From assembly GCA_016722575.1 (NCBI GenBank), contig JADKIY010000002.1, forward strand, positions 136,734 to 200,733: 64,000 nt of DNA, in the 5' to 3' direction. Positions within the stretch are counted from its first letter, which is position 1. Every line of letters starts with the position of its first letter. The translations under genes and the position numbers were made by a program. Below the pieces are notes generated by a model. The model saw nothing but the letters and a program-made list of their open reading frames with translations. It had not been told where the DNA came from and searched no databases. Source of the stretch: Elusimicrobiota bacterium. Its GTDB lineage: Bacteria; Elusimicrobiota; Elusimicrobia; FEN-1173. This document shows positions 34,515 through 51,000 of this stretch, in pieces.

Positions 34515-35557
34515 AGGCCCCGGACCCACCAGCGCTGGGCGCGGAGGGCGAGGGCCAATCGTTGATCGGTGGTTTTGATTTTGGTTTCGTCGAGGGCTTC
34601 GGTGATGAAGGCGCCGGGCTTGGTGCCCAAATTGACGACGCGCTGACCGTCCACGCGGCCGCCTTTTTCGTCGATCATCACCCACACGCGCGGGCGGAGC
34701 GGCAGGCCCGGGCTGGTGGTCAGCACCCGGCCGATTTCGCCGGTGGACAAACGGACGAAGGACCCCGGCGGGTAAAGGGAAAAGGTGTCGATCATGGCGC
34801 GGATCAAGAGGGGATCGAACTCCGCCGCGTTCTCTTCCACGAAAGAGCGAAGCACCTCGTGGGGAACCGTGCGGGGGCGCCAGGGCCGCATGTGGGTCAT
34901 GGCCTCGTAGACGTCGGCCATGGCGATGATTTTGGCGAAGAGGTGGATGCGGTCGGCCGACAACTTGGCGGGGTACCCCTGGCCTTCCTCCCGCTCGTGC
35001 GATTCGCCGATGACCCGGGAGACCATCGCTTTTAAATCGTCGGTCCACCCGTCAAAAAGATCCAACAGTATTTGCCCTTCTTCCACGTGCGCCCGGAGCC
35101 GCTGGGTCTCCTCGGGGCTGAGCTTCGTCGGTTTCGCGGTGATTTCCATGTGGGCGATGAGCCCCAGGTCGTGAAGAAAAGCGGCAAGGCCCACGGTCTC
35201 CAAGTCGTCGCCCCGAAGGTCCAGGGCCATGCCGAGGCGCAGGGCGACGATGGTGACGTTGACCACGTGGCTGAAGAGGAAATGGTCGGAAGCGGAGCGG
35301 TCGGCCAGGGCCAGGATCTCCTGGTCCCCCCCGGCCAGAAGGCCGATGATTTTACGGACGGGGGCCCAGGGCAGGGCCAACGAGTGGGAAGCCGTGGCGG
35401 CGGATTCGACGACTTTGGTCGGGTCTTCCCCCAGGGCGGGGGCGATTTTCTTGTATAACTCCCGGGCCGCGGCCATCACGTCCCCGTACACGTCCGCTGG
35501 ACGGGGCGCGGACGCGGGGCCCCCTCCGGGAAGCGCGGTGGACGGGGCCTCGGTCAT
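34511..35557 (-). CDS. HD-GYP domain protein (c-di-GMP phosphodiesterase-type HD hydrolase)
   Basis: 348 aa, 'HDLGLI', 'HEREEGQGYP' (HD...GYP signature). Confidence 0.8.
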   Translation of the reverse strand: MTEAPSTALPGGGPASAPRPADVYGDVMAAARELYKKIAPALGEDPTKVVESAATASHSLALPWAPVRKIIGLLAGGDQEILALADRSASDHFLFSHVVNVTIVALRLGMALDLRGDDLETVGLAAFLHDLGLIAHMEITAKPTKLSPEETQRLRAHVEEGQILLDLFDGWTDDLKAMVSRVIGESHEREEGQGYPAKLSADRIHLFAKIIAMADVYEAMTHMRPWRPRTVPHEVLRSFVEENAAEFDPLLIRAMIDTFSLYPPGSFVRLSTGEIGRVLTTSPGLPLRPRVWVMIDEKGGRVDGQRVVNLGTKPGAFITEALDETKIKTTDQRLALALRAQRWWVRGL

Positions 35558-35568
35558 GGATATTTAAT

Positions 35569-38013
35569 TCAACGGGCGGGTCCGACCGAGACGCGGACGT
35601 CGACCGTTTTGGCCGAAGACAAGGGCAACACGTCGCCGGCCAGGGGGCGGCCGTCGACGACGATTTTCTGGGAACCCGCGGACAGGGAAGGATCCCGCTT
35701 GATGGAGATTTGGTAGTTGACGCCGCGGAAACGCCGGGTGGCCCGGGCTTCGTTCCAGGGCGGCGGCAGGCAGGGGCGCACCATCAAACCGTCCCAAGTG
35801 GGCCGGATGCCCAAAATCCATTCCGTGGAAATCCGGTAGAGCCACGCCGCCGACCCGGTGTACCACGTCCACCCGCCCCGACCGGGGGTGGGCGAGCCGG
35901 GGCCGTCCACGTTCCCGGGGGTCACGTAGGGTTCGCACCGATAGAGGTCGGCGTCGGCCGCGCCGCGCAGGACCGGGGACATTTTCTGGTAAAGCTCCCA
36001 GGCTTTGTGGGCGCGCCCCAGGGCGCATTCCATTTGGAGGGCCCAGACGGCGGCGTGGAAGTAGATGCCGCCGTTTTCCCGCGTCGTCGGAGAATAGCGG
36101 GTCAAATACCCCACTTTTTCATCCGGCACCGTGTAGGCCGGCGTCAGAAGCAACGGGCCGTGGGGGCCGTAGAGATATTTTTCCAGGGATTTCAGAACGG
36201 TTTTTTTGCGGGCCTCCGAATCCACCGTCCCGCTCAACACCGCCCAGGTTTGGCAGTTCAGGAAAATGCGCCCCTCTTTGTTTTTCTTGGACCCCAGGGG
36301 CGACCCGTCGTCGGTCGTCGCGCCCAAATACCATTCGCCGTCCCAGCCGTGCTTGTTGACGGCGGTTTTGAGTTTCTCGGCGCTTTTGCGGTAGCGGGCG
36401 GCGCGCGACTTTTCCTTGGCCGGCAACACCTTGAGGGCCACGGCCCGGTCGGTGGCATCGGCCCAGTCCCGAAGAATCCCGTAAAGGAAATGCGCCATCC
36501 AAACGCTTTCGCCCTTCCCGCCCGCCCCGGCGGCGGACAAGCCGTCGTTCCAGTCGGCCTCGCCCAGGAGCGGCAATCCCCGGGGCGACAGCCGGGTCAG
36601 GGCTTTCTCAATGGCGCGAACCGCGTGGTCGTGCAGGGTGCCCGTCTCGGTGGTTTTGGTTCCGGGCTTGGCCGCGAAGGGCGCTTTTTCCGCCAGGACC
36701 GACCACTGGCCGGTTTCCTTCAAATAGTTCATCAAGACGAAGGGAAGCCAAAGGAGATCGTCGGAGAAACGCGACGGATGCCCTTCTTCCGACAGCGGGT
36801 GCCACCAGTGGTACACGGTGCCGTCGCCGAACTGATGAGCCGCGTGCAAATGAATTTGTTTTCGCGTTCCCTCGGGGTCCAGGGGCAGGAACACCTGGCT
36901 GTCCTGGAGCTGATCGCGGAAACCGTAGGCGCCGCCCATCTGGTAATAGGCCGTGCGGCCCCAGAGGCGGCCCGAGAGGGCCTGGTATTTGAGCCAGGTG
37001 TTCGTCAACAAATCGAACCCCTTGTCGGGGGTTTCCACCGGGAAAGCGCCGATGTATTTGTCCCAGAACATTTCCGTCCGTCCCCAGGCGTTGTCCACTT
37101 CGGAGAAATCCATGTAGCGCCGGGCCTTGACCAGGGCTTGGGACTGGGAGTCCGCCGCGCCCACGGTGAACAGGACGCTGCGCTCTTCCCCGGCCTTGAG
37201 TTCGACGGGCACGCAGAGGCTGGCGATGCCGTCGTCCCATTTGTGGGTGGTGGGGCCCGTGTAGCGCCCTTCACGGAGGGCGGCCGGGGCCTGGAGCGTG
37301 CCGTAATTGCCCAAAAAGGCCTGCTTGTCGCCCGAGGCGTCCCGGGTCGGCAAATTGACGGCGTGCCAGGCCACGTGGTCCCAGGTTCGGTTCCACAACT
37401 GGCCCTTGGAATTCTTGAGCGGCGACATCCGCTTTTTGGCGAGAACGATTTTCTTGTCGTCTTGAAAGGCGGTCTCGATGAACGTCCGGTGAAACTCCCG
37501 GTGCCAGTCCGGCGACTCGCCCAAATTCCATTCCAAATAGGTCCAGAGGCTCAGGGAGCGGGGCGTTTTGGAGGTGTTCTTGATCCGCAGGCGCCAGACT
37601 TCCAGGGGCTCTCCTTCGGGGACGAACACCAGCCACTGGGCTTGAATCCCCTCGTTTTGGGAGGTGATGATCGTGTAGCCCACGCCGTGAATGACTTCGT
37701 AGCTCTCGGGTTTCGCCTGGACCGGCTGCCAGCCCACGGACCAGAACTTGCCCGACTTGTCGTCCCGCATGTAAATGGTGCGGCCCATGACGTCTTGAAT
37801 CAAATCCTGGTTCCAACGGGTGATGCGGTTCAAGGTGGCGTGGTTCAGCCAGCTGTAGCCGCTTCCCGTCTGGGACATGGCGACGCCGTAGGTCCCCGAG
37901 GACATGATGTTGACCCAGGGCCGGGGCGTGTCCGGCCGGCTGATGATGAAACTCGCGCCGTCCTCGGCGAATTGGCCGTAGGGGGTGCGGTAAGGAAAGG
38001 TTGGGTTGGGCAT
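35569..38013 (-). CDS. GH94-family glycoside phosphorylase (cellobiose/chitobiose phosphorylase-like)
   Basis: 814 aa. 'PRPWVNIMSSGTYGVAMSQTGSGYSW', 'ENGGIYFHAAVWAL', 'RPTWDGLMVRPCLP' parallel Cellulomonas/Cellvibrio cellobiose phosphorylase. Confidence 0.85.
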   Translation of the reverse strand: MPNPTFPYRTPYGQFAEDGASFIISRPDTPRPWVNIMSSGTYGVAMSQTGSGYSWLNHATLNRITRWNQDLIQDVMGRTIYMRDDKSGKFWSVGWQPVQAKPESYEVIHGVGYTIITSQNEGIQAQWLVFVPEGEPLEVWRLRIKNTSKTPRSLSLWTYLEWNLGESPDWHREFHRTFIETAFQDDKKIVLAKKRMSPLKNSKGQLWNRTWDHVAWHAVNLPTRDASGDKQAFLGNYGTLQAPAALREGRYTGPTTHKWDDGIASLCVPVELKAGEERSVLFTVGAADSQSQALVKARRYMDFSEVDNAWGRTEMFWDKYIGAFPVETPDKGFDLLTNTWLKYQALSGRLWGRTAYYQMGGAYGFRDQLQDSQVFLPLDPEGTRKQIHLHAAHQFGDGTVYHWWHPLSEEGHPSRFSDDLLWLPFVLMNYLKETGQWSVLAEKAPFAAKPGTKTTETGTLHDHAVRAIEKALTRLSPRGLPLLGEADWNDGLSAAGAGGKGESVWMAHFLYGILRDWADATDRAVALKVLPAKEKSRAARYRKSAEKLKTAVNKHGWDGEWYLGATTDDGSPLGSKKNKEGRIFLNCQTWAVLSGTVDSEARKKTVLKSLEKYLYGPHGPLLLTPAYTVPDEKVGYLTRYSPTTRENGGIYFHAAVWALQMECALGRAHKAWELYQKMSPVLRGAADADLYRCEPYVTPGNVDGPGSPTPGRGGWTWYTGSAAWLYRISTEWILGIRPTWDGLMVRPCLPPPWNEARATRRFRGVNYQISIKRDPSLSAGSQKIVVDGRPLAGDVLPLSSAKTVDVRVSVGPAR

Positions 38014-38056
38014 GGGTTGTCTCCTTAAAATCGTTTCCGGCGCCCGGCGGGCGTCA

Positions 38057-40522
38057 CTACCACGTCAGTTGAATTTCCGTTTCAGCGCCTTCGGCTTCAA
38101 AATCGAGTCGGGCCTCGCCCGCGCTCCAGGCGGCCGTCGATTTGCCGCCCGCCACCGACACGCGGGGCTTGGCCGGCAAAGCGATCCGGGCCTGGTATTT
38201 GGCCCCGGGCAGGGTGGCGAACACCAGCTTCGCCTTGCGCCCCCGCACCACGGCGTCCAGGACCTCGGCTGTAGCGTACACAAGACGGACGTTTCGGTCC
38301 AGCGGAATATTAAGAGGCAAAACGGCCCCCGAAAGCGGCGCCAAGGGGAGGGTGCCGGTGGCCGGCAACCGCCACCGCCCGTTCCCCCCGGGCCGGGGCA
38401 GGGACACCGCGGCTTTCCGCTCGGTGAAATGGTAATTGAACACAAAAAGAAAACCGTATTCGCCGTTGCACCGAAGCACGGCCTGAATGTCCCAGGGCTC
38501 GCAAACCACCTGGGGCGTCAACCCGAGGCCCTTGGCCCAATCCCGCACCCAGTCCCGAAAGTGATCGAACACGTGGGGCAGGCCGAACCCGACCACCAAC
38601 GCTTCGCCCCGACCCACGCGGGTGTGGACGGCCCCCGCGCCCGAAGGCAGTTCCGCCCGGGTTCGCGCCTTGGCCTCGGTGGCGTAGGTTTGAATGGGTC
38701 CCTGCACCCATTGGTCGGCCCCGTCTTCCTTGAACAAATTGCCCTTTTGCTCCCCCGTCACCGAGAGGCCCAGGGCGTCCGCCAGAGTGGTGTCGGCTTC
38801 GCCCCGCAAGTCTTTCACGGGCAGTCGGGGGCCCAAAATTAATTTTCCCCCTTCGCGGACATAGGCCGCCAACTTGGCCTGGGTGTCGTGGTCCATGAAA
38901 TCCAAGGAATAAACCCAAAGGCTCCCGTGCTTCCGCAGAACGTCCAGGGAGGATCGCTGAACGTCCGTGTAGTCGTAGCTGAAGCCCGCCAGTTGCACCA
39001 GCCGGGCCACGCCGTCGTACCACAGATTTGTCCGTTGACCTTCGATTCCGTCCACCCAGGGGCCGGCCCAATACTCCGTGCCGTAATAGGGCAGATAAAA
39101 ACCGAAAGTGGTGTCCACGGCCTTCTTGGTCTGGGCCAGGAAGGGCCCGGCCCACTTTAAGAAACGGCCGAAATCCTTTAATGGTTCGAGGTGGGGGCGC
39201 GTTTCCCCCTTGGGGCCGATGGGCGCCTGCCAGTCGTGGTAGGTGCCGAAGGCGCCGTAGCCCGGGGGGTTCACGCCGCCCGCGAACATGTAGGCGTTCA
39301 ACCCGGAAAGGCCCTGCCCGACGGAACTCTTCACGTTGAGCGCCACCTGCTGGGGATAAAGTCGGGGCCGGTCCCGCATGATGCCCGTTTGAAGTTCCGC
39401 GCACACGACCGGGAGGGGCGACTCCGCCAGGGGCTCGAAGGGCGGCAGGGCGGGCAGGCGCCCTTCGGCGGCGGGGTTCAATTTCTCAACCGCGCCGTTC
39501 ACCGCCACCGCCCCCAGCATGCGCGTCACTTCGGTGGTCAGGGCCACGTCGTGGAAATTTTCAAAATCCAAGTGCCGCATCTGGTAAGCCCCGCCGAAAA
39601 TCAGCTTCGGCGTCAAAATCGGGAAGTCCCGGAACATGGAGGTGGTCATGGGCGCCCAGTTGCCGCGGCCCCGAATGTCGTAGTCGTAGAACTGCGGGAT
39701 GTTGCAGAAGAGCGGAACGTCCACGCCCAGGTCCCGGGCCCGCCGGGCGAGCAAGTGGAAATAGGTGGCGTAGTACCGGCGGTAGAAAAGCGACCAGTCC
39801 AAGTGAATGACCACCCGGTCCGCGTCGGCGTCTTCGCTCTTGGGCTGGTGCACTTCGTCGAACGAGGCGTAGGCGGTTTTGTAGGCGTCGTTCAAAGCTT
39901 GAATCGTTCCGTGGGTTTCCTGAATGAACCGGCGGTACATGCGGTTCACGTGGTCTTTGTGGTCGGCGCCCTTTTGAAGCCAGTGGACCATGGCGACTTC
40001 GTTGCAAAGCTGAACGGCCAACACGTTGCCGCCCTTGGTGGTCTGCCGACGGACGATGTCCGGCAACAGGGCGTCGTACCACCGGGCCACTTTTTCCTGG
40101 AACACGGGGTGCAGGTAGGACAAAATCGTCACGTGGGGCAGGTTGCCGACGTTCCGACGACCGGTCACGAACACGTCGGGGTAGCCGGAAAGCAGCCAGC
40201 CGGGGATGCCTTCGTTCACCAACTCCGCGTTGGACACGGGCCCCACCCGAGCGGAGACGAACAAGCCCAGGGACTTGGCCGTATCCAGGAAGGTCATCAC
40301 GTCCCGCTCGGGGTGCGTTTCCCCCGTCAGGTCGATGCGCCCTTCCTCCGGCTCGTGCCAGCTCCAGGGGATGTAGGTGCTCACGGTGTTGAAACCGGCG
40401 TTTTTAAGCGCCGTCAACCGCGCGCGCCATTGGGTTTTGGGGATGCGGAAATAGTGCACTTCGCCCGAGTAGAGGAAAAACGGGCGGCCGTTGAGGGAGA
40501 AATAACCGTTGGTCAATTCCAT
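38057..40522 (-). CDS. GH35 beta-galactosidase (no signal peptide)
   Basis: 821 aa, 'GYFSLNGRPFFLYSGEVHYFRIP', 'NTVSTYIPWSWHEP' GH35 catalytic-domain motifs. Confidence 0.9.
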   Translation of the reverse strand: MELTNGYFSLNGRPFFLYSGEVHYFRIPKTQWRARLTALKNAGFNTVSTYIPWSWHEPEEGRIDLTGETHPERDVMTFLDTAKSLGLFVSARVGPVSNAELVNEGIPGWLLSGYPDVFVTGRRNVGNLPHVTILSYLHPVFQEKVARWYDALLPDIVRRQTTKGGNVLAVQLCNEVAMVHWLQKGADHKDHVNRMYRRFIQETHGTIQALNDAYKTAYASFDEVHQPKSEDADADRVVIHLDWSLFYRRYYATYFHLLARRARDLGVDVPLFCNIPQFYDYDIRGRGNWAPMTTSMFRDFPILTPKLIFGGAYQMRHLDFENFHDVALTTEVTRMLGAVAVNGAVEKLNPAAEGRLPALPPFEPLAESPLPVVCAELQTGIMRDRPRLYPQQVALNVKSSVGQGLSGLNAYMFAGGVNPPGYGAFGTYHDWQAPIGPKGETRPHLEPLKDFGRFLKWAGPFLAQTKKAVDTTFGFYLPYYGTEYWAGPWVDGIEGQRTNLWYDGVARLVQLAGFSYDYTDVQRSSLDVLRKHGSLWVYSLDFMDHDTQAKLAAYVREGGKLILGPRLPVKDLRGEADTTLADALGLSVTGEQKGNLFKEDGADQWVQGPIQTYATEAKARTRAELPSGAGAVHTRVGRGEALVVGFGLPHVFDHFRDWVRDWAKGLGLTPQVVCEPWDIQAVLRCNGEYGFLFVFNYHFTERKAAVSLPRPGGNGRWRLPATGTLPLAPLSGAVLPLNIPLDRNVRLVYATAEVLDAVVRGRKAKLVFATLPGAKYQARIALPAKPRVSVAGGKSTAAWSAGEARLDFEAEGAETEIQLTW

Positions 40523-40598
40523 TGTATGAGCGTGTCCGCGGTTAGAAGAGCGATTACACTAGCAAAGAATTTCACAGGGCGGAAGGCGGTTTGTTACA

Positions 40599-41366
40599 AT
40601 GGGAGGCATGAAGCGAATCGGCAAATTGGCCGGAACCGGCGCATTGATTTTCACCTTGGCTTACCTCGGGTTTACCCCCGCGGGCCTGGGGTTTTTCGGC
40701 CAGCCCGCCCGGGTCCCCACCCTCCGTGAATTGACGACGGCCAACCCCGCCACGACCGCCTATATGGAAATTCGGCGACGGGAGGCGAACGCTCTGGGCA
40801 AAAAATGGAATCCGCGTTTTACCTGGGTTCCCTTGACCCGCGTATCCCCCGCCCTGGTGAACGCCGTTTTGGCCGCCGAAGACAGCACTTTCTATCATCA
40901 CCACGGCATCGAATGGGGCCTCACCCGGGACGCGCTTTTGGAAAACCTTCGGCGGGGCGAAAAGGCCCGGGGCGCCAGCACCATCACCCAACAGGTCGCC
41001 CGCAACCTGTATCTCTCCCCGCAAAAAAGTTATTTGCGAAAAATCCGTGAAATGATTTTGGCCCAGCGCCTGGAACAAACCCTGACCAAGCGCCGGATCC
41101 TGGAAATTTACCTCAACATCGCGGAGTGGGGCCCCGGCGTTTTCGGCGCCGAAGCCGCCTCCCAGACTTATTTCGGCAAACCGGCCTCGGCGCTCACCTG
41201 GGACGAGGCCGTCTCTCTAACGGCGGTACTCCCCAGCCCCCGCCGCCACGCGGCCAACGGCGACCGCCCTTGGATCAACGTCCGTCGGAAGTGGGTGTGG
41301 TCCCGGCTCGTTGAAACCCGCCGCTACACGCCGCCGCCCGAAGACCCGCCCGTTCCCGCCCCGTGA
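40599..41366 (+). CDS. mtgA: Monofunctional biosynthetic peptidoglycan transglycosylase (GT51)
   Basis: 255 aa, 'EDSTFYHHHGIEW', 'GASTITQQVARNLYL'. Confidence 0.85.
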   Translation: MGGMKRIGKLAGTGALIFTLAYLGFTPAGLGFFGQPARVPTLRELTTANPATTAYMEIRRREANALGKKWNPRFTWVPLTRVSPALVNAVLAAEDSTFYHHHGIEWGLTRDALLENLRRGEKARGASTITQQVARNLYLSPQKSYLRKIREMILAQRLEQTLTKRRILEIYLNIAEWGPGVFGAEAASQTYFGKPASALTWDEAVSLTAVLPSPRRHAANGDRPWINVRRKWVWSRLVETRRYTPPPEDPPVPAP

Positions 41367-42778
41367 TTCCCACGGCCGCCCTCAAATACCTCACCGTTAT
41401 TGACGCCGGCCTGGCGATCCTGTTCTCCATCGTCGTCATTTCCAAAAAACGAGACCCCGCCGTCACCCTGGCCTGGGTTTTGGGATTTTTCTTCCTCCCG
41501 CTTTTGGGCGTCCTCCTTTACGTTTTCTTCGGCTATCAACGAATCCGCCTTCGTCGACGCCAAACGCCGAACCCCAGCGGCCGCCTACCGTCCATTCGGG
41601 CCCCCGACGCTTTGGCCGCCGTGCCGGAACCCCTGCGCGGCGTGGCGGATTTGGCCGATCGTTTGACCGAATACCCCGTCACCGCCGGAAACCGGGTGGA
41701 TGTTTTCACCCGGGCCGACGACACCGACCACGCCCTGACCGCCGCCATCCGGGGCGCCCGGCGGCACATCCACATGTGCTATTACATTTTCGAGCCCGAT
41801 TCCGACGGGATTTTCTTCCGGGACCTCCTGGCCGAAAAAGCCCGGGAAGGCGTTCAGGTGCGCCTGCTCATGGACGCCGTGGGTTCCTTCAGCGTGGACG
41901 ACGACTTTCTGGCGCCCCTCCGCCGCGCGGGAGCCAGGGTGGATTTCTTCGGCCCCTTCGGCACCTTCCGCCGCCCCTGGGCCTTCAACTTCCGCAATCA
42001 CCGGAAATTGACCGTCATCGACGGCCACGTGGGCTTTTTGGGCAGTCAGAACATCGGCCACCATTTTTGGCGGGTGGGGTCCCGGCGCATCGCCTGGCGG
42101 GAAACCGACGTGCGGTTGGAGGGCGCGGCGGTGGAGGAACTGCAAACCGTCTTCGCCGAAGACTGGCACTTCGTCACCCGGGAAAACCTGGCCGGGGAGG
42201 ACTTTTTCCCTCCGCCGGCGCCCGTCGCGGCGGGTTCGACGCTGGTCCAGGCCCTGCCCACGGGCCCCGACCGGAAAGAAAACGCCCTCGCCTTTATTTT
42301 CGTCGAAGCCCTGCACACGGCCCGGGAACGGGTGACCATCACGACGCCCTATTTCATCCCCACCCCGGCGGTGGTCCTGGCCCTGGAAGGCGCGGCCCGG
42401 CGGGGCGTCCGCGTGGACCTGCTGGTCCCCCGGCGCACGGACCACCCGGTGGTCACCTGGGCGGGCCGGAGCTATTTCGACGAGTTTCTGGAAAGCGGCG
42501 TGCGGATCTTCGAATACGGCGAGGCCTTCCTGCACTCCAAGGTGGTGACGGTGGACGGCCGGCTGGCCCTCCTGGGTTCCGCCAACATGGACACCCGGAG
42601 CTTTCTAATCAACTTTGAATTGAGTCTTCTGGTTTACGATGAAAAAGTCGTGGAACGTCTGGTGCATACTTTCGATAAAACGGCGGGCCAGTCCGTGGCC
42701 TTCGCCGCCAGGGCCGCTCGGGCCCCCGTCCGTCATTTCGCCGAAGGCCTCTGCCGGGTCCTTTCCCCCCTTCTTTAA
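41363..42778 (+). CDS. cls: Cardiolipin synthase (PLD superfamily, two HKD motifs)
   Basis: GTG start overlapping the mtgA stop (GTGA at 41363-41366). 'NHRKLTVIDG' and 'FLHSKVVTVDGRLALLGSANMD'. Confidence 0.9.
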   Translation: MIPTAALKYLTVIDAGLAILFSIVVISKKRDPAVTLAWVLGFFFLPLLGVLLYVFFGYQRIRLRRRQTPNPSGRLPSIRAPDALAAVPEPLRGVADLADRLTEYPVTAGNRVDVFTRADDTDHALTAAIRGARRHIHMCYYIFEPDSDGIFFRDLLAEKAREGVQVRLLMDAVGSFSVDDDFLAPLRRAGARVDFFGPFGTFRRPWAFNFRNHRKLTVIDGHVGFLGSQNIGHHFWRVGSRRIAWRETDVRLEGAAVEELQTVFAEDWHFVTRENLAGEDFFPPPAPVAAGSTLVQALPTGPDRKENALAFIFVEALHTARERVTITTPYFIPTPAVVLALEGAARRGVRVDLLVPRRTDHPVVTWAGRSYFDEFLESGVRIFEYGEAFLHSKVVTVDGRLALLGSANMDTRSFLINFELSLLVYDEKVVERLVHTFDKTAGQSVAFAARAARAPVRHFAEGLCRVLSPLL

Positions 42779-42917
42779 CCCTTAAAAGCCGGTTGATTGG
42801 GCTTGTCCGTCCCAGGGCTTTATTTTTTTTCGTCATCCCGGTACGGGCATAACCGGTATCCAGACCGACTCAAACCGCAGGACCCTGGATCCCGGCTAAA
42901 ATCAGGCCGGGATGACG
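42779..42917. repeat. Palindromic repeat element, copy A (139-nt unit; ~87-nt structured core 42831..42917 bounded by 11-bp inverted repeat CGTCATCCCGG/CCGGGATGACG)
   Basis: Direct repeat of copy B (~85% identity over the unit, including the upstream 'cccttaa..gattggg.ttgtccgtccc..ttttttt' segment). Nested inverted repeats 'atccag..ctggat' and 'atcccggc..gccgggat'. Confidence 0.8.
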
Positions 42918-42960
42918 CACTTATCGACGGGAAATGCCCTTACCAAAACCGCATTGGCTT

Positions 42961-43093
42961 TAACCCTTAAGATTGGGTTTGTCCGTCCCCTATGCATTTT
43001 TTTCTCGTCATCCCGGTATGGGTCTAACCGGGATCCAGACCGAGGCAAACCGCAGGACCCCTGGATCCCGGCTAAACAAACGCCGGGATGACG
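42961..43093. repeat. Palindromic repeat element, copy B
   Basis: '...ctcgtcatcccggtatgggtctaaccgggatccagaccgaggcaaaccgcaggacccctggatcccggctaaacaaacgccgggatgacg'. Confidence 0.8.
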
Positions 43094-43128
43094 ACCTTGA
43101 CTGAATTAAACAGGGGATTTATCCCGGG

Positions 43129-43156
43129 TCCTCCTCCCCCCTTGAGGGGGAGGAGG
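43129..43156. terminator. GC-rich perfect hairpin (CCTCCTCCCCC-cttga-GGGGGAGGAGG) plus second small hairpin (CTCTTT..AAAGAG) at the 3' end of the acyltransferase gene; probable terminator
   Basis: 11-bp perfect stem seen directly. The minus-strand reading is followed by 'tgtttaatt' (weak U-tract). Confidence 0.4.
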
Positions 43157-43179
43157 GAGGAGGGGGGTGCCTCTTTCCG

Positions 43180-44280
43180 TCAAAGAGAATCCGCCGCGGG
43201 CCTTCGAAAGATTCGTAAACCGCCAAAAGCTCGATCGAAAAAGAACCCCAATTTTTTTCGCAGAGTCGAACGAAAACGGTTTTCGATCAAGCCATGGACC
43301 GCGACAGCGGCCAATATCAACGGAACGGTCAACAGCGCCCGCCCCCCCGGGGTTTTTCCCCAGGGGAACAAAGCGAACAAAACGTACCCCACGTCCTGGT
43401 GAAGGAGATAGAGCGGATAGGAAATCGCTCCCAGGGCCACGAACCACCGGCCCAAGGGCCGCGTGCCGATGGGTTGGTGCCAGAATTGGTCCGTCAGCGC
43501 CCCGAAAACCAATAGAACCCCGCAAAGGAACCCGAATCCGACGGACAAGCCGTCCATGGGCAGGGACGGCGCCTTTTCGCCCCCCATCCAGGGCAGTGCG
43601 GCCAACGCGCCCAGGGCGGCCAGCCATTGCCAACCGCCCCGGCCGGGATTTCCGTGGCGTATTTCCCAACCGGCCATTCCGAGGAGGAAAAGCGGCAGGT
43701 AGGGAAAAAAATCCGTCCAGTAGCCGGGCCCGCCGAACCGACCCAAAAGCGCGTTGCCCAATAAACTCACGCCAAAAATCACCCAGAAGGGTTTGAGGCG
43801 TGGAAGGGCGAAGAAAGCCAGGCCGATCAGCCAATAGAATTTAAACTCCACCAGGAGGGACCAATAGGCCCCGTCGACAAAGGCGTAATGGTTGACCGGC
43901 GCGCCCCAGAGGCGCGGCAAAAGAGTCGGAAGGTTGATGGCGGGAAGGAAGACCATGGTTTTGGCCATGTCCATAAAGCCGTGGATCCGGTCCGGCCGGG
44001 CCAGGGGAAAGCCCCGCTCCACCGCCGTCGTTAAAACGGCGCACACCCAGAGGGCGGGCAGGAGCCGGGCGTAGCGCTTGGCCAAAAAGTCGCCCAGGGA
44101 GGCGCTTCCCCGCACGCTCGGCAACATGCAGTAGCCGCTGATCATGAAAAAAAGGGCCACCCCGTAAACGCCGATACGGCCCACGGGGTCGGCCAGTTCG
44201 AAGTGATAAAAGAGGACCGCGGCGATGCTGAGCCCCCGCAGGGCGTCGATGGCGCCTTCGCGGGATTTGTCGTCGGTCAA
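43180..44280 (-). CDS. Acyltransferase family 3 (OafA/YrhL-like membrane O-acyltransferase)
   Basis: 366 aa, 'AIDALRGLSIAAVLFYHF', multi-TM, 'YPLYLLHQ'. TTG start in the track. Confidence 0.8.
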   Translation of the reverse strand: MTDDKSREGAIDALRGLSIAAVLFYHFELADPVGRIGVYGVALFFMISGYCMLPSVRGSASLGDFLAKRYARLLPALWVCAVLTTAVERGFPLARPDRIHGFMDMAKTMVFLPAINLPTLLPRLWGAPVNHYAFVDGAYWSLLVEFKFYWLIGLAFFALPRLKPFWVIFGVSLLGNALLGRFGGPGYWTDFFPYLPLFLLGMAGWEIRHGNPGRGGWQWLAALGALAALPWMGGEKAPSLPMDGLSVGFGFLCGVLLVFGALTDQFWHQPIGTRPLGRWFVALGAISYPLYLLHQDVGYVLFALFPWGKTPGGRALLTVPLILAAVAVHGLIENRFRSTLRKKLGFFFDRAFGGLRIFRRPAADSL

Positions 44281-44290
44281 GGGCGGGGGT

Positions 44291-45100
44291 TCAACGTTTT
44301 GTTTTCATCCGGGAATAGCGATCCATCAGGCGCTGTTCCTCGGCCGTCAAACTGTCGATGCCGTCGGCGGAAATCTTTTCCAAGATCCGGTCCACTTCCT
44401 GGCCCAGCTCGTGAAACTGGACGACTTCTTTTTTTTCCTTCCGCTGGATGGACCAATCCCCCACCCGCCCCAGGGCCCGGCGGAGGTCGTAGCGCAGCGT
44501 TCCGGATTTAAGATACAGAAAACCCGTCAACATGCCGCCCAGGTGGGCGATGTTGGCCAGGCGCGAGTGGGTCCCCGCGAAGCCCATGAGGAATTCAATG
44601 GCCGCGAAGAGGATCACCGCCTGCCAGGCCCGCATGGGGATCATGAAATAGATGTAAAAGACGGACATGGGGGACATCATGGCGAAGGCCACCAAGAGGC
44701 CGTAAATGGCGCCCGAGGCCCCGATGACCGGGAAAATGGAGTTGGGCTCCAGCAGAAGGTTAAAGGCCGCCGCCCCGACCCCGCAGAGGAAGTAATAAAA
44801 CAGGAACGACCTGGTCCCCCATCGGTTCTCCAGTTCCCGCCCCAGGGACCAGAGCATGAAGAGGTTGAAGAGCAGATGGAAAAATCCGCCGTGCAGAAAC
44901 AAATAAGTGACCGGCTGCCACAGCCAATACTCGTGCACCACCATCGTCGGGGTGAGCCCGAAATAGCGAATTAGGGATGGGCCGCCCGCCGCTTCCAGGA
45001 ACCATTGGAGGAGGAAAACAATTCCCGTGGCGGTGAGCAAAAACTTCACCGCCGGCGGCAGGGACCGGTAGGAGAGGGGTTGGTTAAATACCATTTTCAC
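44291..45100 (-). CDS. Rhomboid-family intramembrane serine protease (GlpG-like) with C-terminal soluble extension
   Basis: 'GASGAIYGLL' (catalytic Ser) and 'AHLGGMLTG' (catalytic His), 6 TM segments. Confidence 0.8.
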   Translation of the reverse strand: MKMVFNQPLSYRSLPPAVKFLLTATGIVFLLQWFLEAAGGPSLIRYFGLTPTMVVHEYWLWQPVTYLFLHGGFFHLLFNLFMLWSLGRELENRWGTRSFLFYYFLCGVGAAAFNLLLEPNSIFPVIGASGAIYGLLVAFAMMSPMSVFYIYFMIPMRAWQAVILFAAIEFLMGFAGTHSRLANIAHLGGMLTGFLYLKSGTLRYDLRRALGRVGDWSIQRKEKKEVVQFHELGQEVDRILEKISADGIDSLTAEEQRLMDRYSRMKTKR

Positions 45101-45111
45101 TCATTTCAAAT

Positions 45112-45201
45112 CGTCGTCCCGGCGTGCCTGTAGCCGGGACCCAGAACGACGTGAGGACGGACCACCCCTTGGATCCCGGCCAAAAACCCGCCGGGATGAC
45201 G
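45112..45201. repeat. Palindromic repeat element, copy C (core only)
   Basis: 'cgtcGtcccggcgtgcctgtagccgggacccagaacgacgtgaggacggaccaccccttggatcccggccaaaaacccgccgggatgacg'. Same terminal inverted repeat and 'ctggatcccggc.aaaa' block. The A>G change keeps pairing as G.U only on the plus-strand RNA. Confidence 0.7.
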
Positions 45202-45289
45202 AAAAGATGGGTCAACCGGTCTCTCACCGGCATGACTCGGCAACGTTGTCCCTTGAATCGAACTGGTATTTTTTTCGGTGCGGTTGGGC

Positions 45290-45317
45290 TTGATCAATTA
45301 ATTTTCCGTGCTATAAT
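45290..45317 (+). promoter_or_regulatory. sigma70 promoter TTGATC-N16-(TGc)TATAAT with extended -10, upstream of the fiber-like gene
   Basis: 'TTGATCaattaattttccgtgcTATAAT'. GGAGG SD 7 nt before the ATG at 45381. Confidence 0.5.
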
Positions 45318-45380
45318 CAAAAAGATTTACATCCCGTTCCTGACCTCAAAGTATTATCAACAGCGATCCAGGAGGCCCGT

Positions 45381-46862
45381 CATGGGCGTTAAAAAATCAA
45401 TTTCACGGACATGGTATATCTTTCTCGCGGCCCTGACGAGCGCCGCCATTGCCCACGCGGGGGTTCCCACCAAGATCACCTACCAAGGACGGGTTTTCAA
45501 ATCCGGCGTCGCCGTGACGGGATCCCACACGCTGAATTTAACCGTCGTTGACGCAAACAATACAGCCGACCGTCGAAGCATCGCGCCCATTAATGTTACC
45601 TTGCCCGCGAACGGGGAATTTAGCGTGACCTTTGATCTCCCCCGGATTCGAATGGGACACCAAAGACCCGCAATTGGAAGTGAAGTCGACGGTGATTTAT
45701 TGACCCCCTGGATGATTTCGGCGTCACCCCCTACAGCCTCTTGGCCTCCAGCGTGGCCGCCAACGGTGTTTCAACGCGCTCTTTGCAGGACGGCTCCGTG
45801 ACGAACGTCAAAGTTTCGACGGTGTCCGCCTCGAAAATCATTCTACCCGGCGGCTCCACCCCCATTTCCACCTGGCAATTGGGCGCCGGCAATTTCATCG
45901 ACGCTTCCAAAGTCGCCCTTCCCGGCAGCACCGCTACCGTCGCCTCCTGGCAATACGGCGCTACCGGCTTCATCGATGTCGCCAAAGTGACTGGCACCAT
46001 CCCCACGACTCCCGTGGCCCACGCCACCTCCCACGGACTGGTCGGCACAGACCCATTGAACGGTCTTTCCCCACTACAAATTTCAGGCTCTGCCGTGGTT
46101 TTGCGTTCCACATCGTCCCAAACCATTCAGCCCCAGGTCGGAAGTGATGTGGTTCCCTTAGTTATTAAACCCAACGCCAGCGTTCCTGCAGGGAGCATAA
46201 ACGCTCTTGAGGTATTTACGAATGCCTCGACCACGTCCGTGACAATTCGCGGGGATGGCTTAATGACGGTAAAGGGAACATTGACAGCCAACGGGCCAGT
46301 GAACGCCACCAACGGGCTGACAATTACCGGGAGCCTAAACGTCAGCACGATTGTGCCGAGCGGGAATTTGAATATTAGCGGGCGAGTTCGCGATAATTAC
46401 GGCTATCTCGTCCCCCCCGGAACGATTGTGGCTTTTGCCGGAACGACGGCGCCATCCGGTTGGCTATTATGCGATGGCTCCACAAAAGACAAGTCAATCC
46501 AGCCCGAGTTAAGTGAGTTAAAATTAGTCCTGGGGTCCACCTATGGGGCAGAAACTGCAAATACATTCGTTCTGCCAAATCTAAAAGGACGCGTTCCGAT
46601 GGGATCCGGAATTGGCGCCAGCGCGACCAATTGGACGATTGGAATAAGCACTGGATCGGAAACATACACGCTTTCGATAGCTCAAATCCCACCGCACCAT
46701 CATGGTGGAGTTGTTATTAGCCATACGACAGATGAATTTTCCGCCAATAATAGCCAAGCAATTAAAACAATAACCTACGGCAATACTCAGGATGAAGGCG
46801 GTGGTCAGCCCCATCCCATCATGCAACCCTCCTTGGTCGTAAATTACATAATTAAGTACTGA
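45381..46862 (+). CDS. Secreted phage tail-fibre-like protein with C-terminal tail-collar domain (PF07484-type), interrupted by an apparent -1 frameshift at a C5 tract (45704-45708); low-GC gene
   Basis: Frame 1 45381..45801 ('MGVKKSISRTWYIFLAALTSAAIAHA' signal peptide...). Frame 0 45696..46862 ('FIDPLDDFGVTPYSLLASSVAANG...GTIVAFAGTTAPSGWLLCDGS...LPNLKGRVPMGSG...' collar domain). One extra C in 'tgaCCCCCtgg' restores a single ~493-aa ORF. Confidence 0.65.
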
Positions 46863-46888
46863 TTTATTTTTTAAAAGGGCAATTCAAA

Positions 46889-47485
46889 ATGAAAAGGTTT
46901 CTTCCACTATTGCTTGCCGCAATCAATCTCATTTCCCCCCTCAAGGCCGCCGATCAATCCGTTCAGTCGACGATAAATCGGATGGCCAACGAGTTAACGG
47001 CCACTTACCGATCCAAATCACCCAACGCGAAGCGAGCGCGCCTGGCCATTCTGGACCTTCAAGCCAGCGAAGATTTAAACAAACAACGTATTGGACCGGC
47101 GCTCACAGACATGATCACCAACGAATTCGTCAACAAATCCGATTTCATCGTCCTTGAGCGTGAACTTTTCGGCAAAATCATGGAAGAACACCAACTCCTA
47201 GCCAACTTCGGCGACGTTTCAAACGCCATCAAGGTAGGAAAGGTTTTGGGGGCTGAGGTGGTCTTGCTTGGGAGTGTCACCCAATTCAAAAGCGACCTTC
47301 GAATCAACCTGCGCTTGGTAAACACCGAAACAACCGAAATACTTAGCACCACATCCGGCATGGTTTCATTAAGCGAATTTTCCAAAGAAAATCCAATTTT
47401 CCCAGGATTTGTCCCTATCACTCAAAAAATCGGCTTATTTGCGGTCTTTGAATATCGTTTCCTGGCAAAACGAACACACCAATAA
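46889..47485 (+). CDS. Periplasmic/lipoprotein-type protein with CsgG/TolB-N-like fold (secreted, 198 aa); low-GC gene
   Basis: Signal peptide 'MKRFLPLLLAAINLISPLKA'. 'RLAILDLQA...LTDMITNEFVNKSDFIVLEREL...ILEEHQL...GKVLGAEVVLLGSVTQF...LRINLRLVNTETTEIL' matches the CsgG/FlgO-like pattern. Confidence 0.6.
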   Translation: MKRFLPLLLAAINLISPLKAADQSVQSTINRMANELTATYRSKSPNAKRARLAILDLQASEDLNKQRIGPALTDMITNEFVNKSDFIVLERELFGKIMEEHQLLANFGDVSNAIKVGKVLGAEVVLLGSVTQFKSDLRINLRLVNTETTEILSTTSGMVSLSEFSKENPIFPGFVPITQKIGLFAVFEYRFLAKRTHQ

Positions 47486-48059
47486 TAACCTCAGAAGGTG
47501 CAAGAATTAATGAAATTAATGTTTCAAATTTCTCTTTAGGTTATACAGGCTTGGGGATTCGTTACTTCCCAACAAGGATTATTTTTATCGAAGGATCAGT
47601 CCTCCAAGTAAGCGGCAACAATAACACCAGCAAATCGTTCAATATTTCGGGAAATTCAGGGATAATTGGCAGTTTTCAGGCAAAGGGCAAAGCTTTACGG
47701 TTCAGATTTGGAACAAAAAGAAAACATACTGAAAATCTTTGTTTCCTCCTCTCTCGGCTTTTCGATTCAAAAACTTGACCTTGCGACTGGCGTGGTTCTG
47801 CGAATGGAATCCCAAACCTATCCAAAACAGTCCCTAATTTCAGCATTGGTGCAACCATGAATATTCAACAAAGACTCGCGATTGGCTTGCAAATTCGATG
47901 CGATCTAAGGAAACTTGATGTCCAAAGAAACAGGCTCAAATCAAAAAGTATATTCCCTCAACCCGTTAGTCATTTCCCCTCAACTCACGTTCTATTTCTA
48001 GTCTGAAACAATAATTGCCCGACAAATCCCTCACCCCCATCTTTCTATTCGCCGCGTTT

Positions 48060-51000
48060 ATGTTGGGCACGGCGCGGTTTGCGCCGCGGTGGGCTTTGCG
48101 GCGGCCGGCCCTGGTGGGGGTTCTTACGGCGGCGCTCGTTGTTTGGGGCATCGTTTCCATGCGGGGGCTCCCGGTGGAGCTCATGCCCAACGCGGCGTCG
48201 GACACCGTCACCGTCACGGTGGGCGTCCGGGGCGGCATGTCCCCCACGGACGTGGAAGCCCTCATCGTCCGCCCCCTCGAAGACGGGTTGGGGGACCTCC
48301 CCCGCCTTAAAACCCTGATCTCCAGCGCCAAAAAAGACCGGGGCGTGGTCACCCTCGATTTCCACCCCGGGGTCGACATGAAGCGCGTCACCGCCGAGGT
48401 GAACGAACGCGTGGACCGCGCCCTGGCCCGCCTGCCCGCCGAAATCGAAAAACCCGTTATCGCCCACTTTGAGGAAAACGACGCCCCCGTCTACATCGCC
48501 GCGGTCCTAAGCGACCGCCTCTCGCCCGAGAGCGTCCGCAAAATCATCGACGACAACATCAAAGACCACCTCCTTCGGACGCCCGGCGTGGCCAACGTGG
48601 AAATCGGCGGTGGGCGGGAAGGCAAGATCCTGGTGGAGCTCAACCGGGATCGCCTGGCCGCCTACGGCCTTTCCCCCCACCAAATCACCAGCCTCCTGGG
48701 CCGCCGGAACGTCGCCCTTCAAGTCGGAAGCGTCACCGGGGACGCCCGCGTGACCCCCGTGCGGCTCGTGGGCACCCTTAAAAACCTGGAGGATTTCCGA
48801 AAGGTCGTGGTGGCCCGGGACCCGTCGGGAGGCACCGTCCGGCTGGAAAACGTCGCCACCGTGACCGACAGCTACCTGGAACCGGAGAGCCTCTCCCGGT
48901 TGAACGGCCAGGCCGCCGTGTCGCTCTACGTTCAAAAAGAATCCTCCGCCAACACCCTGCGGGTCGTGCGTGACCTGGAAAAAGCCTGGGACAAAGCCTG
49001 GCGCAACCTGCCGGCCGGAACGCGGAAAGACCTTCGACACGTGGTCGTCTCCAACCAGGCCCTGGGGATATTGGCGGCGGTTGTTTCGGTTCGTGTGTCC
49101 CTGGCCTGCGGGATTCTGTTGATCCTCCTTTCCCTCTGCCTTGTTGAAAGCGAGCGCCTTTCCACCAAGCGCATGGCGGGCGTCGTCATGGGAATGCTAT
49201 TGGCGCTCATGTGCGTTACCGCCCTGCTTAAAATCAGCGACGCCCGCATGGAGCCCCTCTACTGGATACTTCTGGGGCTATTTCTCCTATTGGCTTTTTT
49301 CGACCCGGACATCCGGCCTGGGCTCATCGTGGCGGGCAGCATGCCCCTTTCGGCGCTTTTCTGCTTTCTGCTCTTCCAGGCCTGCGGGTTGACCCTGAAC
49401 GTCATGAGTCTCTTCGGCCTGGCCCTGGGGCTCGGCATGTTGGTGGACAACGCCACCGTGGTCTATGAACACATCAACGAACTCGGCCTCCCCCCGCCCG
49501 GCCCGGCCGCCCGGGAAGCGGCGCTCAAAGCCACGGAGGAAATGGTCATCCCCTTGATCGGCGGCACCGTCACCAACGCCATCGTTTTCGTTCCCTTTCT
49601 TTTTCTGTCCCGGGAAATCCAGTTGATGTACACCGACGTGGCGGCGGCCGTGGGGGCCTCCCTCTTCGCCTCCCTGGGAATTTCCTTAACGGCGGTTCCC
49701 CTACTGGCCTCGGGACTCATGCTTAAAGGCGCGCCGAAATGGCCGACGTTCCCGGGGCCATTCGAATCCCGGGCCAAAAAATGGGGCGAGGGCTTAAACA
49801 GGTTGGGGACGGTTTTGTGGGAGCGCGGTGCGGCCTTCTCAAAGCGCGCGATGGAGAGAGCCCGGGCCTTTTACGCCGCCCGACTTAAGCCCCGTTTCAA
49901 TTCACTGGCCGGGCACCATTCCCTGGCGGGTTTGCCGCCCTGGGCAGCGCTGGTTTTGTTTGTGGTGTTGTTTGCTGGGTTGTGGGCGCTCGGGGGCAAG
50001 ACGCCGGCCAAGATTTTCTTTCTGCTCACGGCCCTGGGGCTCACGGCGGCGGGCTTCGCGCTTTTCCGGGGTTTTGAGCGCCACTGGCCGCGCCTTTTTC
50101 ACCGTCGGGCGGAAACCCTGGCCGCGGCGCTCTTGCTGGCGGCGGCCGCCACGGCGGTGATTTTTAAGGCCACCGAACGGGACTTTCAAACCTCCGGGGA
50201 ATTGGACGAATTCGTCGTCTTTCTGGAACTCTCCTCGGGGGTCCGGCTGGAGGTGTCGAACGCGGTGGCGGCCGAGGTGGAAAAGATTTTGGACACGGAC
50301 CCGGAGGTGGCCCCCACCATCAAAACGGCCGTCAGCCGGGTGGAAGGTTGGTCCTCCAAAATTTACGTCACCCTCGTTCCCCGGGCCCAACGGCGATTGA
50401 GCGCCGAGCAGGTTCAGGACCTCCTTCGGGTGAAGCTCAAAGGCGTGGGGAGCGACAAGGACCCCAACGCCTTCGTCCACTTCTCCAGCCCCCGAACGGG
50501 GCAGGAAATCACCGTGGAAGTCCTGGGCCCCGACTACGGCGTCTTGGAACAGTTGGCCCAGCAAATTTGCGGCTCACTGGAAAAAATCCCCGGGCTTTCC
50601 GACGTTAAAATGCGCTACCGCCCCGGCCGGCCCGAGGTCTTGGCCGTGGTGGACCCCGACCGGGCGGCCCGGGCCGGCCTTTCCGCCGAGGCCGTGGCCG
50701 AAACCACCCACGCCCTGGTGCGGGGCCTTCGGGCCACCACCTTCCGCACGGGCGGCCGCCAGACGGAAACCATCGTCCGCCTCCGCCGGGAAGATTCCGA
50801 AAACCTGAACGCACTGGCGGACCTGCCCCTGGGCGGCCCCTCGGGCCGCACCCTGCGGCTGACGGAGGTGGCGGACCTCACCATGTCCAAGATGCCCAAC
50901 GAGATTTTCCGGGAAAACAAAGCCCGGCTCATTCAGATCACCGCCAACCGCACGCGCCTCTCCCTGGGCCGGGCCGCCGAGGAAATCCAGGCCGCCCTGG

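Follow-up and report, generated by a model that had tools for sequence, protein, structure and literature searches.

Three intergenic palindromic elements, here called A, B and C, lie on either side of a membrane acyltransferase gene and a rhomboid protease gene in a 64,000-nucleotide (64-kb) stretch of one contig from an uncultured Elusimicrobiota genome (assembly GCA_016722575.1, contig JADKIY010000002.1, positions 136,734 to 200,733 of the forward strand). This stretch is referred to below as the window, and window-level counts refer to it. We consider A, B and C very probably to be HH dimers, with tags outside, of CGTC-tagged repetitive extragenic palindromes (REPs), or Ssn-related motifs (SRM). 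Their superfamily is already known, as is its protein partner, and they are not RNA genes; what is new is the Elusimicrobiota host and a subtype of the motif with a 9-nucleotide (nt) loop. We describe the anatomy of the elements, their membership in a cross-phylum family, the association of that family with a GIY-YIG gene of about 95 amino acids (aa), and the absence of the elements from orthologous sites; the biochemistry of Ssn is taken from the literature.

Anatomy of the palindromic elements

Reading of positions 42500-45500, together with a repeat finder, recovered the three palindromes described in an initial annotation of the sequence. They are imperfect, about 88 nt long, and the sole copies in the window:

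42831-42917, palindromic core of element A
43006-43093, palindromic core of element B
45112-45201, palindromic core of element C

The initial annotation had placed A at 42779-42917; the palindrome is present, but the 52-nt leader included in that span is non-palindromic and the core starts at 42831. The proposed 11-bp terminal inverted repeat was found again, with the 11-mer CCGGGATGACG occurring five times exactly and once with a single mismatch (CCGGGACGACG), and these six occurrences are the six ends of A, B and C. Four other one-mismatch matches in the window correspond to chance level (3.6 expected). Core identities are 77/88 for A/B, 67/90 (74%) for A/C and 68/90 (76%) for B/C; the similarity of A and B, previously put at about 85%, is real and measures 114/139 (82%) over the spans first used and 87.5% over the cores. 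The right-hand block (T/C)TGGATCCCGGC(T/C)AAA is common to the copies and the centre of C is unrelated to those of A and B, both as first described. An assembly artefact is ruled out, since two independent SRA assemblies (99.7% identical overall to the window) have the elements without any change. Comparison with the sister strain (L121-L123), where the elements are the same, thus yielded no informative difference.

Each element is a doublet of two inverted 33-nt units, or arms, with the CGTC tags outside and a spacer of 21-24 nt between them. On its sense strand an arm consists of CGTC, an 8-bp stem beginning AT (ATCCCGGC...GCCGGGAT), a 9-nt loop and a CCAG tail. The SRM string HGTCWYN(0-2)YYVSBRHN(0-5)WNVSBRGN(0-2)RNCYNB matches three of the six arms, the sole matches in the 64 kb on both strands. 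The parts are as follows, with folding energies for single-stranded DNA (ssDNA):

42831-42863, plus strand, left arm of A: CGTC-AT..(9-nt loop)..AT-CCAG, partly decayed with 7/8 stem pairs; matches the SRM string
42864-42884, no strand, centre of A: 21-nt spacer
42885-42917, sense on minus strand, right arm of A: CGTCATCCCGGC-CTGATTTTA-GCCGGGATCCAG, 8-bp hairpin, -8.7 kcal/mol, z -4.2
43006-43038, plus strand, left arm of B: matches the SRM string; -7.7 kcal/mol
43039-43060, no strand, centre of B: 22-nt spacer
43061-43093, sense on minus strand, right arm of B: matches the SRM string; -8.9 kcal/mol, z -6.0
45112-45144, plus strand, left arm of C: first stem pair G-C instead of A-T, a compensated double change; -9.7 kcal/mol
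45145-45168, centre of C: 24-nt spacer, unrelated to the centres of A and B
45169-45201, sense on minus strand, right arm of C: tail CCAA; -8.8 kcal/mol

All six arms begin with the CGTC tag, which is unpaired in the ssDNA folds, and all six have a 9-nt, T-rich loop with a consensus of about RTGYTTTTR. In five arms the ssDNA folds into a hairpin of 8 bp whose two ends each keep 4 unpaired nt (-7.7 to -9.7 kcal/mol); the exception is the left arm of A, which forms only a 5-bp hairpin at -4.1 kcal/mol. Four stems are ATCCCGGC/GCCGGGAT or ATCCCGGT/ACCGGGAT, with the altered first pair in C left and one mismatch in A left accounting for the others, and the tail is CCAG in five arms and CCAA in one.

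This is the plan of the CGTC-tagged REPs defined by Di Nocera, De Gregorio and Rocco (2013, BMC Genomics 14:522), which comprise a CGTC tag, an 8-9 bp stem starting with A-T pairs, a 4-5 nt loop and a CCA tail. In that catalogue the tag, unpaired at one end of the palindrome, may be CGTC or TGTC/CCTC; the repeats occur mostly as HH dimers with spacers of 20-100 bp, in many copies per genome and mostly in extragenic positions with a preference for gaps between convergent genes. Exceptions in loop length are noted, many REPs are argued to be transcribed, and the Neisseria dRS3/NIME and Rickettsia RPE-4/RPE-6 repeats are counted as members of the superfamily (Di Nocera et al. 2013). The window elements share the tag, the 8-bp stem opening with A-T then T-A, the unpaired CCA(G) tail, the HH arrangement with 21-24-nt spacers, the heterodimeric arms, and an extragenic position that is often, in the catalogue, between convergent genes. 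They differ in the 9-nt loop, the Elusimicrobiota host and the stem core CCCGG(C/T). Compared with Neisseria dRS3, which has the stem ATTCCCGCG, a 4-nt loop and hundreds of clustered copies, the window holds three copies at one locus. Integron attC sites were set aside as a candidate, as the ends read CGTCAT/ATGACG and not RYYYAAC/GTTRRRY by sequence inspection, no dedicated scan having been run.

A family spread across many phyla

When one genome of each species was scanned for the right-arm pattern, at least 120 loci were returned; among their sources are Nocardia, Methylococcaceae, Caulobacter, Hyphomicrobiaceae, Syntrophorhabdaceae, Anaerolineales, Elusimicrobia, Binatia and Nitrospira. 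Although not imposed by the pattern, the partner arms carry the same CGTCAT(C/T)CCGG...CCGG(G/A)ATCCA motif, and near-identical arms occur in distant phyla. A hairpin census among the listed loci counted 238 arms, with 60 doublets in the tags-out arrangement against 10 in the opposite one. Loops of 9 nt were present in 106 of these 238 arms and in 27 of 156 arms near ssn genes, at loci fetched by protein similarity. Other Elusimicrobia loci (L005, L021 and L051) carry the same 9-nt-loop arms, and 4-nt-loop arms are also present in Elusimicrobia. Across the 156 protein-fetched arms, stem pairs 1, 2, 3, 6 and 8 vary by compensatory changes, which shows selection on the arm hairpin.

The initial annotation had taken a lack of further copies as the mark of a local duplication artefact. 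The confinement of three copies to one locus in 64 kb and the local duplication of A and B would suit a palindrome arisen by chance, or a duplication confined to this locus and lacking a wider family, yet this explanation has already been refuted by the hundreds of related copies across many phyla and by the agreement of three independent assemblies.

The elements also have several features of MITEs (miniature transposable elements with inverted-repeat ends), being small, intergenic, bounded by inverted repeats and absent from orthologous sites, and could on that account be classical MITEs derived from a DDE-type insertion sequence (IS) with 11-bp terminal inverted repeats. This is extremely unlikely. 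The search for target-site duplications that had been proposed found none at the window copies or at 55 other doublets, and the longest flank repeat averaged 3.14 against 3.12 for re-paired flanks (n=58 doublets). In 35 of 58 doublets the inverted repeat goes no further than the tag, no IS with such ends was found, and each supposed terminal repeat is itself a hairpin with compensatory variation.

Clustering of 4118 open reading frames (ORFs) from 120 element-bearing loci revealed no recurrent linked transposase, with neither RAYT nor IS110 present. ABC ATPases, SDRs and NRPS/PKS genes made up the clusters that recurred, and one small GIY-YIG cluster was the only informative one. These results bear on a reading of the elements as REPINs, that is, REP doublets mobilised by RAYT, an IS200-like HUH tyrosine transposase. 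The two designs are much alike: in REPIN-RAYT systems (Bertels and Rainey 2011) and IS200/IS605, short inverted palindromes pair into a larger hairpin, sites are extragenic and lack target-site duplications, the ssDNA hairpin is recognised strand-specifically with cleavage beside it, and a single-copy enzyme gene is flanked by its own repeats. However, RAYT-associated REPs have a GT(A/G)G head where the window arms have CGTC, the CGTC repeats have no associated transposase and flank no RAYT (Di Nocera et al. 2013), no transposase recurs in the 120 loci, and the gene found between arms encodes a GIY-YIG nuclease and not an HUH transposase. We therefore regard mobilisation by RAYT as very unlikely indeed.

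A literature search on literal arm 10-mers returned primers only. Two further patterns were seen among the loci. Nocardia doublets (e.g. L003, L011, L015 and L040) are systematic heterodimers of an ATTCCGG-type and an ATCCCGG-type arm, and for this reason only one strand of their long hairpin contains G.T wobbles. In several phyla, tandem duplications of a half-arm together with its flank adjoin the outside of elements (L041 at 830-900, L034, L078, L092, L098 and L106; e.g. CATGCCGGGATGACGGGTGGGGAG three times), and could arise by slippage at the hairpin or by repeated end processing.

Association with Ssn nuclease genes

The informative ORF cluster, common to three taxa, carries a GIY-YIG domain, and in L010, L093 and L036 a left arm and a right arm exactly enclose its 96-aa ORF. 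The catalytic spacing of this protein, Y8/Y19/E66, corresponds to Y6/Y17/E64 of SsnA. As reported by Chenal (2025, Nat Commun 16:2388, PMC11893778), SsnA is a 94-aa single-domain GIY-YIG (cd10448) protein whose gene is flanked by the NTS (CGTCATTCCCGCGMAVGCGGGAATCYRG) of Neisseria and its relatives, the SRM. The unit 5'-CGTCAT-stem-loop-stem-ATCCAG-3' folds as an ssDNA hairpin that the cognate Ssn binds and nicks a few nt 5' of the tag. SsnA is inactive on double-stranded DNA, RNA and the reverse strand; loop identity and length are not critical, as cleavage is kept when the loop is changed, removed or extended. In Neisseria, SsnA restricts transformation by NTS-flanked DNA (Chenal 2025).

The association of tagged hairpins with such genes was measured in 80 metagenomic loci fetched by an Ssn-like protein, counting upstream hairpins within 160 nt and using dinucleotide shuffles as the control. 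A tagged hairpin was present upstream in 53 of 80 loci, an inverted hairpin downstream in 64, and both in 46, against 1.2, 1.3 and 0.03 in shuffles. Seven of the ssn-flanking loci have 9-nt-loop arms as in the window (e.g. CGTCATTCCGGCATGCTTTTGGCCGGAATCCAG in L125). The flanked 96-aa protein has no model in NCBIfam, and in the PDB it gave only a weak UPF0213 match, 1ZG2.

Locus L010 also contains a gene-less doublet next to its ssn unit. Judged by reading of the sequence, this doublet keeps the sub-terminal sequences of the gene-bearing unit and is visibly an internal-deletion derivative of a hairpin-ssn-hairpin unit. The relation finds partial support in L151, L163, L189 and L196 and generalises only partly (5/11 contigs). 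The label "MITE/REP-like" in the initial annotation thus holds in its REP part, the elements being HH dimers of CGTC-tagged REPs, and in its MITE part in the sense of deletion derivatives (L010), but not for classical MITEs. With bacterial MITEs the doublets share small size, non-coding content, inverted-repeat ends and, in L010, origin by deletion from a gene-bearing unit; they differ in having neither target-site duplications nor a DDE transposase parent.

The window arms share with Ssn motifs the logic CGTCAT-palindrome-ATCYRG, the presence of the family on both sides of about 95-aa single-domain GIY-YIG genes, the SRM-gene-SRM layout, here around membrane-protein genes, and, for three of the six arms, the SRM string itself. 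They differ in that the window has no ssn gene, three arms fall off the strict string, and cleavage of the arms is predicted. The gene-less doublet form is not the focus of Chenal (2025).

Other arrangements around ssn genes were noted. The ssn homologue of L068 (4793-5086), whose reading frame contains a TAG, directly follows a gene-less doublet and has no upstream arm of its own; it looks like a decaying copy. Arrays of tags-out doublets surround the ssn gene in L189 (200-2300, about 20 doublets with a period of ~82 nt) and L196 (600-1860, about 6 with a period of ~124 nt), resembling the clustered arrangement described for Neisseria and Wolbachia.

Folding and the question of RNA function

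The initial annotation predicted a multi-hairpin fold from nested inverted repeats and proposed a structured small RNA. The first prediction is borne out, in that shuffles fold far less well than the whole cores, whether these are taken as RNA (z -3.9 to -7.1 over the two strands) or as DNA (z -2.9 to -5.0). The entire element can also form a single long hairpin on either strand, as is expected of any such doublet. A structured small RNA or cis-regulatory RNA made from the plus strand, with the 88-nt hairpin as functional unit, would accord with this folding, with the position of C, which is 17 nt upstream of the rhomboid ATG and so probably within the 5' untranslated region (UTR), and with the case made by Di Nocera et al. 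(2013) for transcription of many REPs.

Other observations make such an RNA very unlikely. Rfam searches at gathering and permissive thresholds found no family at the elements, with three tRNAs elsewhere in the window as the only hits; local matches reached at most 33 bits, to microRNA hairpin models whose thresholds are 94 bits. The minus strand of all three copies folds more stably than the plus strand and has more G.T pairs (minus against plus: A, 3 and 2; B, 3 and 1; C, 4 and 2). Over 400 arms there is no excess of wobble on the tagged strand, the non-Watson-Crick stem positions comprising 29 G.T, 46 A.C and 67 others. The centres of A and B are unrelated to that of C; C, if transcribed with the rhomboid gene, would be read as the minus strand; and SsnA does not bind RNA (Chenal 2025).

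The argument for RNA had rested on an A>G difference in C that preserves pairing as G.U on the plus strand. This is literally true, but in the left arm of C the A>G change is paired with a T>C change across the arm's own stem, turning the first pair from A-T to G-C, and the same variant is present in 17 of 156 unrelated arms. Because the change is compensated within its own arm, the hint of plus-strand function fails, and for the same reason the conserved unit is the 33-nt arm hairpin and not the 88-nt fold. Nothing supports an RNA-level function.

Setting of the elements and history of the locus

The genes and leaders around the elements are:

41363-42778, plus strand, PLD-type (cardiolipin-synthase-like) gene; its stop codon abuts the leader of A
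42773-42830, plus strand, leader of A: the last 6 nt of the PLD ORF (CTTTAA), CCCTTAA..GATTGGGCTTGTCCGTCCC and a T-run; 43/58 identical to the duplicate before B
42958-43005, plus strand, leader of B: repeat of CTTTAACCCTTAA including the PLD stop codon
43180-44280, minus strand, Acyl_transf_3 membrane acyltransferase, first bracketed gene, with its stop at 43180
44291-45094, minus strand, rhomboid protease with DUF6576, second bracketed gene, 267 aa as called in L121, with its ATG at 45094

As first described, all three copies are intergenic and lie on either side of the acyltransferase-rhomboid pair. A and B sit between the convergent PLD (stop 42778) and acyltransferase (stop 43180) genes, and C between the rhomboid ATG and a divergent gene starting at 45382, whose conserved promoter-like site is at 45290-45317; the near end of C is 17 nt upstream of the ATG. 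C is now most likely in the rhomboid 5' UTR. Since the leader of A and the end of the PLD ORF are repeated ahead of B, A and B are a local segmental duplication and not two independent insertions. The A-B pair with its repeated leaders resembles a small mosaic array of the dRS3/NIME kind.

Hairpins selected primarily by the host, to terminate transcription or stabilise mRNA and lacking a nuclease partner, might be expected at such sites, as the hairpins are stable and A and B occupy the gap between convergent genes that REPs prefer. A terminator scan, however, found no hairpin plus T-run at A, B or C, with one weak site within C only; no U-run follows the hairpins on either strand, and on the plus strand a T-run instead precedes A and B. 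C lies in a divergent promoter region, and termination leaves the cross-phylum conservation of an unpaired tag and tail unexplained. We judge this explanation highly improbable.

The closest named orthologue of the bracketed acyltransferase is in an Elusimicrobiota metagenome-assembled genome, and orthologous contigs at about 86% DNA identity have none of A, B and C. Their homology ends exactly at the PLD stop (42778) and restarts at 43253, 73 nt inside the 3' end of the acyltransferase gene, with the same boundaries in L204 as in L207. Two segments are lineage-specific:

42779-43252, 474 nt: A, B, a polypurine hairpin and a new acyltransferase C-terminus; 65 nt instead in L207
45095-45282, 188 nt: holds C; 8 nt instead in the orthologue L204

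The second has the rhomboid ATG on one side and, on the other, the conserved promoter-like site of the divergent gene. At the end of the acyltransferase gene, ~24 codons (43180-43252) are non-homologous to the C-termini in L207 and L204, and by this comparison the inserted segment appears to have given the enzyme a new C-terminus and stop codon.

The polypurine hairpin is a strong polypyrimidine/polypurine inverted repeat, CCTCCTCCCCCCTtgaggggGAGGAGGGAGGAGG, at 43130-43163, 17 nt beyond the acyltransferase stop. It belongs to the 474-nt segment, the orthologues lack it, and it may terminate the operon, though no U-run follows it. In L205 (1915-3114), a group II intron reverse transcriptase (RVT_1 + GIIM) lies downstream of an 85% acyltransferase orthologue and is a different occupant of the same intergenic position.

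Every doublet in the window has a T-run immediately 5' of one tag, and the 8-mer CCGGTTGA in the leader of A (42790-42797) has its reverse complement in the outer flank of C (45214-45221). These resemblances may be chance (p about 0.04) or a hint of a mobile unit longer than the doublet.

Divergence from the sister strain L121 (window 34302-48404) is stepwise, at 0.14% left of A and 0.58% from A to C, with 8 single-nucleotide differences in 45450-45493; beyond 45502, identity is 86-87%, within a phage-tail-collar-domain gene. The pattern has the look of a boundary left by recombination close to the repeats, comparable to the raised diversity reported beside dRS3.

Among pattern-fetched loci, the comparison for filled and empty orthologous sites was uninformative about insertion: L012 and L067 differ by a decamer-repeat expansion and L041 and L046 are unalignable at the element. 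The decamer array, (GCTCGCCCCC)n, stands beside a single arm and is expanded in one Nocardia genome relative to the other (L067 1109-1214 against L012 2625-2630).

Origin, mobility and significance

Several observations weigh against the assignment of A, B and C to the CGTC-tagged REPs and SRM. The three copies in the 64 kb are all at one locus, and the window holds no Ssn homologue by tblastn and hidden Markov model searches over six frames (best E about 4). Three arms depart from the strict SRM string by one or two positions, where NTS controls match, and the 9-nt loop is outside the 4-5 nt of the four families of Di Nocera et al. (2013). The window-specific segments of 474 and 188 nt exceed the doublets, so that the empty sites are not clean element-length insertions, and loss in the relatives instead of gain is not formally excluded. 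Mobility of SRM-ssn-SRM units, finally, is raised only as a hypothesis by Chenal (2025), who likens NTS-ssnA-NTS to an insertion sequence.

If the elements are HH dimers of SRM, the gene-less doublets would be non-autonomous derivatives of hairpin-ssn-hairpin units. They would have entered this Elusimicrobiota lineage after its split from the relatives of about 86% identity, at two points, one downstream of the PLD gene and one upstream of the rhomboid gene, and the first insertion would then have been duplicated locally to give A and B. As each strand of a doublet carries a single sense arm, the nicks made by an Ssn would fall just beyond both ends of the element. Should the genome encode Ssn, the SRM-genes-SRM layout would mark the acyltransferase-rhomboid segment for ssDNA cleavage in recombination or transformation, as in Neisseria. 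Any effects on RNA, from C in the rhomboid 5' UTR or from A and B after convergent genes, would be a by-product.

A further step is to regard the hairpin-ssn-hairpin unit as an autonomous mobile element using the 95-aa GIY-YIG nuclease, with A, B and C as its non-autonomous derivatives. We put this forward tentatively, as a possibility that we think more doubtful than not. It is compatible with the data because of the filled and empty sites, the L010 derivative, the lack of target-site duplication, the near-identical arms in distant phyla and the decaying ssn of L068; the inserted segments, being larger than the doublets, are a caveat. Transposition chemistry is established for IS200/IS605, not for Ssn. 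We know of no joining activity of Ssn, and our search of later literature on transposition of Ssn units found nothing beyond the original authors' hypothesis.

These results assign a hitherto unannotated palindrome family of an uncultured Elusimicrobiota genome, join the 2013 repeat catalogue to the 2025 enzyme discovery, and identify a 9-nt-loop subtype that is common to Elusimicrobia, Nocardia, Chloroflexota and several proteobacterial groups and that flanks ssn genes too. They also carry a caution for annotation, namely that hairpins of this kind are not to be called small RNAs. The L010 locus offers an explicit case of a gene-less doublet derived from an ssn unit, which bears on the mobility of Ssn elements. 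The clear contrast of filled and empty orthologous sites shows that gain or loss of these doublets takes place at the species level, and that they are able to alter the C-terminus encoded by a gene as well as a 5' UTR. If the Ssn units are indeed mobile, they would constitute a class of transposon unrelated to DDE, HUH and serine or tyrosine recombinase elements, and the window would be a record of recent insertions, one directly abutting a stop codon and one a start codon.

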